Below, piece after piece: positions 18,337 to 22,569 of a stretch of 32,000 bases of DNA. How positions within the stretch are numbered: the first letter of the stretch is position 1; each line of letters starts with the position of its first letter. The translations under genes were made by a program, and so were the position numbers. The notes under the pieces were generated by a model. It had not been told where the DNA came from and ran no database searches. It saw only the letters and a program-made list of their open reading frames with translations. The stretch comes from Pyrodictium abyssi (GTDB lineage: Archaea > Thermoproteota > Thermoprotei_A > Sulfolobales > Pyrodictiaceae): contig NZ_AP028907.1 of NCBI RefSeq assembly GCF_036323395.1, positions 1,560,001 to 1,592,000 on the forward strand, in the 5' to 3' direction.

Positions 18337-20031
18337 ATGGACGTGATAGCGGTTTCATTCTTAATAGCCACGATAATAGCCTACATGCTCATAGCCTACC
18401 GTGCACGCGCAACAAGCACAGAAGAGTTCTACGTAGCCGGCCGTAAGGTATCACCAATCCGTAACGGTATGGCTACCGCGGCAGACTGGATGAGCGGTGC
18501 AAGCTTCATATCAATGGCCGGCGCGGTAGCCGCTCTCGGCTACGACGCAAGCGTCTTCCTAATAGGATGGAGCCTTAGCTACGTGCTACTAGCAATGCTC
18601 GTCGCGCCATTCCTACGCAGCTACGGCAAGTACACCATACCAGACTTCTTCGAGGACCGCTACTACAGCAAGAAGGCAAGGCTCTTCGCAGTCATAATGC
18701 TATACGTAGTATCGCTAACATACCTCACTGGCCAGCTACTAGGCGTAGGCATAGTGCTGTCCAGGGCCTTCGGCGTAGACGCCACCATAATGACCCTAAT
18801 AGCGCCGCTACTAGTGCTGCTCTACAGCAGCCTTGGCGGCATGAAGAGCATTACCTGGACACAAGTGGCACAGTACATAGTACTCATATCCGCATACTGG
18901 CTACCAATAGTGCTGATAAGCCACCTATGGAACCCGATACCACACATAGCCTACGGCCAGCACGTAGAGAAGGTAGACAACATAGTAATGGAGCTCAAGG
19001 GCCACGCGTGGACCGAGCCCTTCTGGCGTACCTACGCTAGCGGCACGGGTCAGCTCAACTGGCTACTAAGCACATTAGCGCTAATGCTAGGCACCATGGG
19101 CCTACCCCATGTGCTAATGAGGTTCTACACGGTGCCTAGCGTACGCGACGCACGCAAGAGCGTGGCATGGAGCCTCTTCTTCATAAGCCTGCTATACCTA
19201 ACAGCGCCAGTATACGCAGCGCTAGCAGGCGAGAAAGAGTACCAGCTATACGCTATGGTTAAGCAGCTCGACGGCCAGCCTATCGATGTCGTGAAGCAGG
19301 AGCTGATGAAGGAGCCCTGGGTAAAGAAGTGGATGGAGGCTGGCCTCATAAAGCTAGTTGACAAGAACGGCGACGGCATATTCCAGTACGGGAAGGACGT
19401 CTTCAGCATTCATAAGGACATAGCAGTGCTAGGCCTACCAGACATGTACGGTCTAGGCGCGGTGATAGCCTCAATAATACTAGTAGGCGGTATATCTGCT
19501 GCACTATCAACTGCTGACGGTCTAATACTGGCAATGACTACTGCGGCTACTCGCGACATCTACAAGTCCATAATCAACCCGCGCGCGACTGAAAAGAAGG
19601 AGCTAATGGTGGCAAGAATATCAATGGTAGGCATAGCCTTCATATCCGGTACACTAGCATACCTAATGGCCTCCAACCCGGTGATAAAGGCCTACATAGC
19701 CAAGACAGTAGCCTGGGCGTTCGCGTTCGCCGCGTCAACGCTAACGCCAGCGATGATACTAGGGCTGCACTGGAAGAGGGCCACCAAGGAGGGCGCTATC
19801 GCTGGTATGCTGGCGGGCCTGGCGGTAGCTGTACCCTACGTAGTCGGTGTGTCTCTGGGCTACATGGAGCCGGTGAGCATAGCGGGCCAGAAGATAGGCA
19901 CCATAGCATGGGGCGTGATAGGCTTCATAGTAAACATAGTAGTCAACGTAGTAGTATCGCTAATGACAAGCGAGCCTCCGAAGAAGGTACAGGAGCTTGT
20001 CGAGCAGATTAAGGTCCCAGTGAGAAAGTAA
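18337..20031 (+). CDS. Sodium:solute symporter family permease (ActP/VC_2705-like carboxylate permease)
   Basis: 564 aa with about 13 TM helices. SSS blocks include AADWMSGASFISMAG and GGMKSITWTQVAQY. GGGGTGG Shine-Dalgarno-like element upstream. Confidence 0.9.
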   Translation: MDVIAVSFLIATIIAYMLIAYRARATSTEEFYVAGRKVSPIRNGMATAADWMSGASFISMAGAVAALGYDASVFLIGWSLSYVLLAMLVAPFLRSYGKYTIPDFFEDRYYSKKARLFAVIMLYVVSLTYLTGQLLGVGIVLSRAFGVDATIMTLIAPLLVLLYSSLGGMKSITWTQVAQYIVLISAYWLPIVLISHLWNPIPHIAYGQHVEKVDNIVMELKGHAWTEPFWRTYASGTGQLNWLLSTLALMLGTMGLPHVLMRFYTVPSVRDARKSVAWSLFFISLLYLTAPVYAALAGEKEYQLYAMVKQLDGQPIDVVKQELMKEPWVKKWMEAGLIKLVDKNGDGIFQYGKDVFSIHKDIAVLGLPDMYGLGAVIASIILVGGISAALSTADGLILAMTTAATRDIYKSIINPRATEKKELMVARISMVGIAFISGTLAYLMASNPVIKAYIAKTVAWAFAFAASTLTPAMILGLHWKRATKEGAIAGMLAGLAVAVPYVVGVSLGYMEPVSIAGQKIGTIAWGVIGFIVNIVVNVVVSLMTSEPPKKVQELVEQIKVPVRK

Positions 20032-20048: not shown

Positions 20049-21704
20049 ATGAGGGAGAACTCTGTTCCACGCGATATACTCATTTTTTTACAGAGTAAGG
20101 TGTTTCCTCATACCTCGCCTAGGCTTCTTGAGAGTCTGTTGCAGTGTAGCAGGATTATGCTTCTACAGGAAGGCGAGGAGCAGCGCAAGCCCGGGCTCTA
20201 CATAGTCTACAGTGGCTCTATCGCTGTAGACTCTCAGCTTCTCACTGTAGGTGACTATGTTGTCTCTGAGCATGGCGTTCGGGCGGTAGAGGAGACAATA
20301 GTTATATACGCTGACTACGAATGCGCTCGGCCAGTACTTACTCTTGGCGAGGAGGAGCCTTGCCTAGTAGGTGACCTTATCTACCGTGACCCCGTTGTTG
20401 TCGGCCCCGATATGCCCGTCATAGAAGCTGTGAAGAAAATGTACCGTGAAGGCGTATCGTCGATAATAGTAGTGGATGTGGATGGCAGGCCGTTGGGAAT
20501 ATTTACTGATACAGACTTGCGCCGCTTGGTGGCGCTGGGAGAGGACCTTTCTAGGCCGATATCAGCGTACATGACGCCTCAGCCGCTCTCCATAAAAGCT
20601 TCGGCTACGTGCATGGAAGCTGCGTTCGCGATGATGAACCGGTATGTTAAGCATATAGTGGTAGTTGACGATAGTGGTAGAGTTTCGGGGGTCGTTACTG
20701 TTCGCGACATAGCCTATGCTGAGGCTCTTGGCCCGCTCTACATGCTTCGGCGTATCCGGAGCGCCTCTAGTGTTGATGAGCTAGCGCTGCGCTACCGTGA
20801 GCTGGTATCGCTTCTCCGCCGTGAAGCGCGCCGTCTCCATCCCAGCGGTGGTGGCCGTGAAGCTGTCCATATGGTGCGTATGGCTAGCCTAGCTCTGCGT
20901 GGCGTTATGTCTAAGGCTGCAGAGCTAGCTGCTAGAGAGCTCGGCTTACCGGGTGATGGACTAGCTTATCTCTCTCTAGGCAGTAATGGTAGGCTTGAGC
21001 AGTTCCTAGCTAGCGATAGGGATACTATGCTAGTGTACTGGGGGGTAGACGAGCAGAGAGCACGTGTCTTTGCTGAGCGCGTAGAGGATATTCTTGACAG
21101 GATAGGGTTCCCCGGGTGTAGGCATGGCTATACATCGCGTCAGCTGCTCTATTCTCGGGACGAGTTGCTGGAGAAGTTAAGCTCTATGGCTAGGGACCTC
21201 ATGGATGAGAACATTGTATTGTTGAGTATGATGTTTGATGCTGTAGACGTATGGGGGCAGCACGGGACGGCGGAGTGGATTAGGAGGAGTATAGCCGAGC
21301 TCCTTTCGAGGTCGAGTAGCTATATTATGGGCGTTCTGCCGGTGTATCGGCCGAAGCTGGGTTTTGCTGGAAGGCTTCCCCGCGAACTGGACCTCAAAGC
21401 TCATGGGCTAGCACCAGTAGTTTACACGGTCAAAGCTTTTGCCTTAGCTGAGACTGTTTGGGAGCCGGTTAACACGCTTGACAGGTTAATGGCGCTAGTG
21501 GCTAAGGGCGTCGTGCCGAGCGACCTAGCTGCTGACGTTGCTGAGGCTTATCGGATACTATCCGCGTTCATGGTATGGTCGCAAGCTCTTCACGGGAGTA
21601 CTAGGATAGATACTAGCGAGCTTAGTGGATTCGAACGCTCTATACTCCGCTCGGCACTGCGCACAGTTCAACGCTTTGTTGATTATGCGCGAAGGAGGGG
21701 GTGA
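20049..21704 (+). CDS. Signal-sensing putative nucleotidyltransferase: cNMP-binding-like N-terminus + 2 CBS + DUF294 NTase + DUF294_C
   Basis: CBS pair (DPVVVGPDMPVIEAVKKMYREGVSSIIVVD... and MTPQPLSIKASATCMEAAFAMMNRYVKHIVVVD...). NTase core YLSLGSNGRLEQFLASDRDTMLVY (G-S...D-x-D). Helical C-terminal domain. Confidence 0.8.
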   Translation: MRENSVPRDILIFLQSKVFPHTSPRLLESLLQCSRIMLLQEGEEQRKPGLYIVYSGSIAVDSQLLTVGDYVVSEHGVRAVEETIVIYADYECARPVLTLGEEEPCLVGDLIYRDPVVVGPDMPVIEAVKKMYREGVSSIIVVDVDGRPLGIFTDTDLRRLVALGEDLSRPISAYMTPQPLSIKASATCMEAAFAMMNRYVKHIVVVDDSGRVSGVVTVRDIAYAEALGPLYMLRRIRSASSVDELALRYRELVSLLRREARRLHPSGGGREAVHMVRMASLALRGVMSKAAELAARELGLPGDGLAYLSLGSNGRLEQFLASDRDTMLVYWGVDEQRARVFAERVEDILDRIGFPGCRHGYTSRQLLYSRDELLEKLSSMARDLMDENIVLLSMMFDAVDVWGQHGTAEWIRRSIAELLSRSSSYIMGVLPVYRPKLGFAGRLPRELDLKAHGLAPVVYTVKAFALAETVWEPVNTLDRLMALVAKGVVPSDLAADVAEAYRILSAFMVWSQALHGSTRIDTSELSGFERSILRSALRTVQRFVDYARRRG

Positions 21705-22310
21705 TGTATAACGGGTGCTAAGGGGTATGCTGCTTTAGACATTGAGTCTACGTGTCTGGATGCCCGGAAATGTAGGATGGTCTCAGCTGCTGTTGTGCCT
21801 TTCACGGGCAATAGCTTGGAGCTATCCCGTGTCGTGTACTACTCTGAGCCCCCGGATGATGGTGTTAGAGGCTCTGCTCTTGTGCACGGTGTGACTAGGT
21901 CGTCTGGAGTTGTCGGCTCTTTTGGCCGGCTTGTGGGCGTTACGAGAGGCCGTATACTTGTAGTGTATGGGCACCATGACGTAGAGTTCTTGAGAGCTGA
22001 GGCTGCGAGGCGAGGGATAGAGATCGGGAAAGTGTGCTATGTGGATGTTCTCTCTTGGGCGCTTAGCGTTCCTAGTGCACATGATGAAGCTGTAAAGAGG
22101 GGGCGCTTCACACTTGATGACGCTCTTGCGGTGCTTATGGGTGTTGAGGTGCCCCGGCGGAGTTTCCACGACCCGGTCAGTGATGCTATACATGTGGCGT
22201 TGCTCTTTATGCATCTAGCTGAGAGGCTTGGAAATCCTCCTGTAAAGTGCTGTAGTGGGAGGGCTAGTTCTAAGCTCCGTCGTGCTCTTGCTAGGCTACT
22301 CAGACTATGA
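21704..22310 (+). CDS. DnaQ/RNase T-like DEDDh 3'-5' exonuclease with an interrupted 5' end (needs a +1 shift or a non-canonical start; possibly a pseudogene)
   Basis: Exo I AALDIESTCLD (21732-21764) lies upstream of the first in-frame ATG (21777). VHGVT, Exo II GHHDVEFL and Exo III HDPVSDAIHVALLF follow. ATG 21704 overlaps the upstream TGA but is in another frame and stops at TAA 21719-21721. Confidence 0.7.
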
Positions 22311-22569
22311 TAGGGGGTATTTGTTGCCGGCTTAAGCCCCTATACCCTGGTAGAGTTCTAATACTAGTAGAGCGTATAGCTTATAGTAATGGAGCCCTGG
22401 CTGCCCGCGGCCTCGATGGAGCCGCGGGCGGGCCCGGGGCGGTGACGGGTCGGGCTATATGCTGAGGCCTCTAGGCTCAATGAGGATGTGCCGCGGCTCG
22501 GCGGTCTATTCGACGGACGCGTTAGCTGCATGGTTTGTGTTGACATAGCTATATGGGGTGGATGTGTGA

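Follow-up and report, generated by a model that had tools for sequence, protein, structure and literature searches.

Comparison with Described Systems

The open reading frame (ORF) considered here lies in a 32,000-nucleotide (nt) stretch of the Pyrodictium abyssi genome (contig NZ_AP028907.1, positions 1,560,001 to 1,592,000 of the forward strand; hereafter the window, in whose coordinates positions are given unless stated otherwise). It follows a gene for a CBS/DUF294 nucleotidyltransferase-like protein and encodes a predicted DEDDh 3'-5' exonuclease, the first catalytic motif of which (Exo I) precedes any ATG, GTG or TTG codon of the frame. The closest described counterparts are the DEDDh exonucleases of the DnaQ/RNase T-like, PRK09145 type encoded beside DUF294 genes, and a CBS/DUF294 nucleotidyltransferase encoded in a symporter cassette is usually accompanied by an exonuclease of this kind. 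The Pyrodictium gene has the same Exo I, II and III motifs, the same predicted fold as RNase T, DnaQ and TREX, and the same setting, immediately following genes for an SSS symporter and a CBS/DUF294 protein; however, it is divergent in sequence, belongs to a hyperthermophilic archaeal host, and has no canonical start codon. A search of the literature found no paper linking DUF294 with an exonuclease.

With respect to translation, the junction between the two genes resembles the short zero-frame ORFs of prfB and antizyme, which end in a stop codon while the main ORF continues in the +1 frame, but no conserved shift heptamer, re-pairing or properly spaced stimulator was observed here. Starts of the bacterial infC type (AUU or AUA) offer another parallel, since there, too, a near-cognate codon stands at the N-terminus of the family behind a Shine–Dalgarno (SD) sequence and is conserved between species. 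The stretch ahead of the first ATG contains an ATA, which is listed with ATT, ATC and CTG among the alternative starts of NCBI translation table 11. Unlike in infC, the AUA start is a proposal here, made for a genome that prefers CTG and ATT and in which ATA starts are not otherwise evident, and no autoregulatory logic is apparent at the Pyrodictium gene. Termination–reinitiation at overlaps such as ATGA, GTGA and TGATG (Huber et al., PMC6728339, PMC10666635) is represented at this very junction by relatives that use GTGA, whereas the candidate restart codon of P. abyssi is near-cognate and located 3 nt past the stop, and the canonical overlapping GTG and ATG open a dead-end ORF of 5–6 codons. 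The gene is best filed under the known class of non-canonical starts combined with translational coupling.

Reading Frame and Purifying Selection

The exonuclease frame (frame 0) is uninterrupted from the TGA stop of the DUF294 gene (21702–21704) to position 22310. The 24 codons ahead of the ATG at 21777 read CITGAKGYAALDIESTCLDARKCR and include no ATG, GTG or TTG, and the Exo I pair, D at 21738–21740 and E at 21744–21746, is encoded 13 codons upstream of this first canonical start, with the Exo II and Exo III motifs following downstream. An ATG at 21704, part of a TGATG overlap, and the GTG at 21701, part of a GTGA overlap, open a mini-ORF in frame +2; read from the ATG, it encodes MYNGC and terminates at a TAA (21719–21721). 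A run of five G residues (G5) occupies 21697–21701. All statements of the initial annotation of this DNA on the sequence are borne out by the window sequence, supplemented for the motifs by the alignments.

The same frame layout was found in an independent metagenome-assembled genome (MAG) of a sister species of Pyrodictium with 78% amino acid (aa) identity (G003; the P. abyssi genome is designated G000, P. occultum G001 and P. delaneyi G002). Its junction reads ...RRRG, an in-frame TGA and then RIAGARSYAALDIES, and no canonical start precedes Exo I. Its G5 run is identical to that of the window, its mini-ORF reads GTG-ACG-TAT-AGC-GGG-CGC-TAG, and the codon corresponding to the ATG at 21777 is TTG rather than a Met codon. 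The ATG at 21704, which had been described as a classic translational coupling arrangement, is not conserved, being replaced by ACG with loss of the TGATG overlap. The two genomes align without any indels through the DUF294 gene and the junction; a single 3-nt indel and no frame-breaking one was found in the exonuclease ORF, and about 15 indels are present in the spacer past its stop.

The ratio of nonsynonymous to synonymous substitution rates (dN/dS) between the two species was 0.08 for the DUF294 gene, 0.21 for frame 0 of the exonuclease ORF (dS 0.52), 0.20 for the 24 pre-ATG codons, and about 1.3 for the two other frames of the exonuclease ORF. Within the 17 codons at 21726–21776, seven of the 10 differences are synonymous (P ~0.004 under neutrality), and the three replacements (A/T, K/R and R/K) are all conservative. 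Since purifying selection includes the pre-ATG codons, the Exo I segment appears to be translated in frame 0 in both lineages. Judging from these sequence comparisons, the gene is real, functional, conserved and under selection, its pre-ATG segment is most probably translated, and the layout of the junction is itself conserved.

These data also bear on an assembly error and on a recent inactivating 1-bp insertion, both of which the initial annotation had listed among the explanations of the missing start. The G5 run does adjoin the junction, but the independent MAG has an identical run and the same frame layout, and the ORF has stayed under purifying selection (dN/dS 0.21) without further lesions over a synonymous divergence of ~0.5. 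An artefact or a pseudogene is thus refuted, unless a systematic error is common to both assemblies, and is scarcely credible.

Motifs and Predicted Fold of the Exonuclease

The NCBIfam model PRK09145 (3'-5' exonuclease) aligns to residues 8–173 of the extended ORF (numbered from position 21705) with an E-value of 6.5e-8 and a score below its curated cut-off (32 bits versus 189), and the Pfam family RNase_T gives an E-value of 0.26 (12.3 bits versus a cut-off of 24). A profile built from six orthologues retrieved 684 relatives; the seven closest are 199–208 aa long, and the profile matches begin 1–12 residues from their N-termini. The residues D12, E14, D92, H155 and D160 are all invariant in the alignment of the six orthologues, and in a 32-sequence alignment this holds for D12, E14 and H155, while D92 and D160 are nearly invariant. 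In the AlphaFold2 model (predicted local distance difference test, pLDDT, 91.2; predicted template modelling score, pTM, 0.86), strand 1 comprises residues 8–15 (YAALDIES), containing D12 and E14, and strand 2 begins at Met25. The best Foldseek matches were RNase T, DnaQ, TREX2 and Pol III epsilon (probability 1.0). The predicted fold is of the DEDDh, RNase H-like DnaQ type, and profile similarity indicates a divergent member of the DEDDh superfamily for which the curated thresholds are not reached. Altogether, alignments and model indicate that the gene encodes an intact, selected, predicted DEDDh 3'-5' exonuclease.

Since Met25 opens strand 2, a start at 21777 would remove the central catalytic strand 1. 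The product of a gene started solely at this ATG, or at the TTG of the sister species, would be a truncated protein without Exo I, catalytically dead or repurposed. A canonical start codon is indeed present at position 25 in both species, GGAGGTG precedes the TTG of the sister species by 4 nt, and public gene calls begin at this codon or further downstream. However, the 17 codons upstream are under purifying selection at the amino acid level, the predicted product would lack strand 1 together with two metal ligands, and no SD sequence precedes 21777 in P. abyssi. Moreover, position 25 simply carries one of the hydrophobic residues M, L, I or V of the strand in the orthologues, encoded by TTG, CTA, CTG, ATA or GTG outside P. 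abyssi. Exclusive use of this start is therefore very unlikely. In the sister species the GGAGGTG is a perfect one (L009:2560-2580, equivalent to window 21763–21779) and, with the TTG, could give rise to a truncated isoform.

The public gene calls, which begin at or past position 25, most probably represent a truncated enzyme deprived of two catalytic residues.

Start Codons in Related Genomes

A family search covering 29 genomes gave a match in ten, plus a fragment from G024, and the DUF294–exonuclease junction was readable in nine. A canonical start 5–14 codons ahead of the Exo I Asp is present in all seven of the other Pyrodictiaceae orthologues: a GTG that overlaps the DUF294 stop (GTGA) in P. 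occultum, G005 and G024; an ATG in G015 and G043 and a GTG in G044, each 4–33 nt past the DUF294 stop; and, in P. delaneyi, an in-frame ATG 17 nt inside the DUF294 gene. Among the nine readable junctions, only those of P. abyssi and its sister species are without a canonical start.

The Logan relatives P0001, P0006 and P0007 (92% identity) probably lack a canonical start as well; their gene calls begin at residue 38. Metagenome scans for further DNA of the start-less clade found none. Relative to the DUF294 frame, the exonuclease is in frame +2 in P. occultum, +1 in P. delaneyi, and 0 in P. abyssi and its sister species, so the junction is indel-prone within one genus.

Proposed Start at ATA 21708

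Strand 1, which carries the Exo I Asp and Glu, has to be part of the protein, so that translation would have to begin upstream of 21726. We propose that initiation could take place at the near-cognate AUA at 21708–21710, where ribosomes would be positioned by the strong SD tract GGAGGGGGUGAU and/or which they would reach by termination–reinitiation from the DUF294 stop located 3 nt upstream. We infer this to be the likeliest start codon, although only tentatively; whatever probability the explanations considered here leave over falls to others, such as the ACG at 21711 in P. abyssi. Near-cognate initiation at either ATA 21708 or ACG 21711 had been among the options of the initial annotation, and of the two the ATA fits best, while the ACG fits less well because the sister species has GCG at this position.

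The ATA is the sole near-cognate codon ahead of Exo I that is common to P. abyssi and its sister species. In these two genomes and in P. delaneyi it always lies six codons ahead of the strand 1 Tyr, while the spacer between TGA and ATA is 3 nt in P. abyssi and 7 nt in P. delaneyi. Since the distance from ATA to strand 1 is fixed although the spacer differs by 4 nt, the frame continuity of the three species starts at the ATA.

The 3' end of the 16S rRNA is ...GGAUCACCUCCU, and A21696–U21705 could form 10 base pairs with it, including one G·U pair. Genome-wide, the end of GGAGG peaks 11 nt ahead of start codons and that of GGTG 8–9 nt ahead. The GGAGG at 21694–21698 ends 10 nt ahead of the ATA in P. 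abyssi and the sister species and 11 nt ahead of it in P. delaneyi, but only 6 nt ahead of the ATG at 21704 and 3 nt ahead of the GTG at 21701. In Haloferax and E. coli, termination–reinitiation couples genes only where they overlap or lie a very short distance apart (PMC10666635), which fits an ATA at +3 nt and not the ATG 21777 at +72 nt.

Several observations weigh against a start at this codon. In the alternative GGUGA pairing register the ATA is 3 nt past the duplex (offset -4, with the peak at -7), which is too close. ATA starts led by an SD sequence are not enriched genome-wide, with four weak cases in one test and 3.4% versus 6.9% overall in another, and ATA makes up 72% of the Ile codons in the genome, so its conservation is weak evidence. 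The start-less clade is known from two DNA sequences, P. delaneyi may use its in-frame ATG as the real start, and the literature searched contained no experimental evidence of archaeal AUA starts.

Possible Recoding at the Junction

An alternative to initiation at AUA 21708 is that the junction represents a conserved recoding site, producing either a fusion by UGA readthrough or the exonuclease by a stop-dependent +1 frameshift. Taken as a whole, recoding seems unlikely, and the two mechanisms differ in what supports them.

Readthrough is formally an option because the TGA of the DUF294 gene is in the exonuclease frame; the initial annotation omitted it from its list of options, although the in-frame TGA was recorded there. 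Some ribosomes would decode this TGA with a near-cognate tRNA, yielding a DUF294–exonuclease fusion of about 750 aa. TGA is the leakiest stop codon, and it is also the least used one in this genome (TAG 63%, TAA 20% and TGA 17% in 1703 long ORFs). In both start-less species it stands in the exonuclease frame with a coding-like ORF downstream, and the coupling of the two partners by a GTGA overlap in relatives suggests their joint action. On the other hand, an in-frame stop is expected by chance in one case out of three, and the base after the stop varies (T versus C). Neither a tRNA with a UCA anticodon nor an opal-suppressor or selenocysteine (Sec) tRNA was found in the genome, and the junction RNA, when folded, had z-scores from -0.3 to +2.5 without a structure shared by the two species, so no conserved downstream RNA structure was found. 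Among the longer homologues there is no DUF294–exonuclease fusion, the long matches bearing other domains, and no lineage has converted the stop into a sense codon, the DUF294 protein of every relative terminating at the junction or a few residues from it. Readthrough is accordingly improbable. The Aragorn program predicted an intron-containing "tRNA-Pyl (cta)" (genome positions 174378–174476, minus strand); it was rejected as an amber suppressor, being most likely a mis-parsed intron-bearing tRNA.

A programmed +1 frameshift would involve a start at GTG 21701 or ATG 21704, after which the ribosome would slip at UGC-UAA-G, a site that reads CGC-UAG-G in the sister species. Precedents for stop-dependent +1 shifts exist in prfB and antizyme, P. 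occultum and two other genera do start at the GTG of the GTGA overlap, and the mini-ORF has the same length and stop position in P. abyssi and its sister species. Nevertheless, this option, also raised in the initial annotation, found little support: two of the seven bases of the site differ between the species, changing both the P-site codon and the stop, and neither tRNA would be able to re-pair after a +1 shift. At 21716, the change from T to C is silent for frame 0 but replaces Cys with Arg in the mini-ORF, the stop of which is a by-product of the frame-0 codons GCT-AAG or GCT-AGG. In addition, there is neither an SD-like element 3 nt upstream nor a structure, and the GGAGG is just 3–6 nt from the GTG and ATG, a poor spacing. 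A frameshift is thus still more doubtful than readthrough.

Two other mechanisms were rejected. Transcriptional slippage on the G5 run, by gain or loss of one G, would leave no frame leading into the exonuclease, and for a -1 shift from the mini-ORF in frame +1, any shift before 21705 meets the TGA and no slippery site follows.

Recoding, if true, would rank among the rare programmed cases documented in hyperthermophilic crenarchaea, and might be a wider habit of the lineage, as canonical starts are also missing from leuA and other genes of this genome; in the case of readthrough the product would be a sensor–nucleotidyltransferase–exonuclease fusion. Whether by starts other than ATG, GTG and TTG or by recoding, Pyrodictium presents here a clean, conserved case of non-canonical gene expression backed by selection. 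With its 30 nt, the junction is a compact substrate for testing how archaea select start sites, reinitiate or read through stops at about 100 °C.

Organisation of the Junction and Cassette

The features of the locus are listed in Table 1. The ATG that opens the mini-ORF in frame +1 corresponds to the in-frame annotated start of P. delaneyi. The exonuclease is closed by a tandem stop TGA-TAG (window 22305–22313), past which the Logan relatives P0001, P0006 and P0007 continue into a 17-aa C-terminal extension.

Table 1. Features of the DUF294–exonuclease junction and surrounding cassette in the P. abyssi window.
Feature	Position	Strand	Basis or remark
Sodium:solute symporter (ActP-like), first large gene of the cassette	18337..20031	+	Pfam SSF, E-value 5e-57
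CBS + DUF294 + DUF294_C nucleotidyltransferase-like gene	20049..21704	+	Pfam; TGA stop shares the frame of the exonuclease ORF
Mini-ORF in frame +1 (ATG...GTA-TAA)	21685..21711	+	Stop overlaps ATA 21708 by 2 nt
SD-like tract GGAGGGGGTGAT	21694..21705	+	GGAGG at 21694–21698; 16S rRNA 3' end and genome-wide SD spacing
Mini-ORF in frame +2, GTG-ATG-TAT-AAC-GGG-TGC-TAA, candidate zero frame for +1 frameshifting	21701..21721	+	
TGA stop of the DUF294 gene, candidate readthrough site	21702..21704	+	Frame 0 with the exonuclease, as is the TGA of the sister species
ATA, proposed near-cognate (re)initiation codon	21708..21710	+	Conserved in P. abyssi, the sister species and P. delaneyi
Proposed full coding sequence of the DEDDh exonuclease, ~200 aa	21708..22310	+	dN/dS 0.21, AlphaFold2, Foldseek
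Exo I D-x-E (D12, E14), in strand 1	21738..21746	+	Invariant in the 32-sequence alignment
First canonical start (Met25), first residue of strand 2	21777..21779	+	
Exo II Asp (D92)	21978..21980	+	Alignments of six and 32 sequences
Exo III H-x4-D (H155, D160)	22167..22184	+	Alignments of six and 32 sequences

Non-Canonical Starts Elsewhere in the Genome

Genome-wide, the first starts are GTG in 41% of cases, ATG in 36%, and TTG in 23%. Among the 5'-most codons of long ORFs, CTG is preceded by a correctly spaced GGTG in 33 cases versus ~17 expected, and phosphoglucosamine mutase (GlmM) and ribosomal protein uS13, both with CTG, and leucyl-tRNA synthetase (LeuRS), with ATT, show matches to NCBIfam models that begin at the non-canonical codon, far ahead of any canonical start. 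By these sequence criteria, near-cognate CTG and ATT starts are demonstrably in use in this genome. Together with the exonuclease, the starts of GlmM, uS13 and LeuRS suggest that gene finders apply start-codon rules too narrow for this lineage.

The exonuclease gene is not the sole selected gene of the lineage without a canonical start, leuA (minus strand, around genome position 2088580; L013:639-1781:-) being another. No canonical start precedes its DTTLRDGDQ motif, and an ATA at position 1 of the family model overlaps the TAA of an SD-led mini-ORF (M-E-L-A). This cassette is conserved in several Pyrodictiaceae, where the mini-ORF starts with ATG, GTG, TTG or CTG, and in other genera an ATT lies within a conserved TATTGTTG context. 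The codon equivalent to the ATA of leuA is GTA, ATC, ATA or GTG in relatives; because it varies, the parallel with leuA does not establish initiation at ATA. RTA codons overlapping a stop showed no enrichment genome-wide. In the divergent ilvB, in-frame GTG codons were seen, so that recoding does not seem to be needed.

The four genes described below, with probable CTG or ATT starts, are located on the minus strand. The CTG of GlmM (genome position 736799, L031:118-1500:-) lies behind GGGGTG at -9 and 51 codons upstream of the first ATG, GTG or TTG; the alignment to the Arch_GlmM model begins at residue 3. Well-spaced SD sequences precede the probable starts of leucyl-tRNA synthetase (ATT 858044, L032:70-3045:-) and uS13 (CTG 1867564, L033:72-515:-). 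A gene for a Nop2/RsmB-like methyltransferase (L034:82-1107:-) has a probable CTG start at 207906 behind GGGGTG, 69 codons before the first canonical start.

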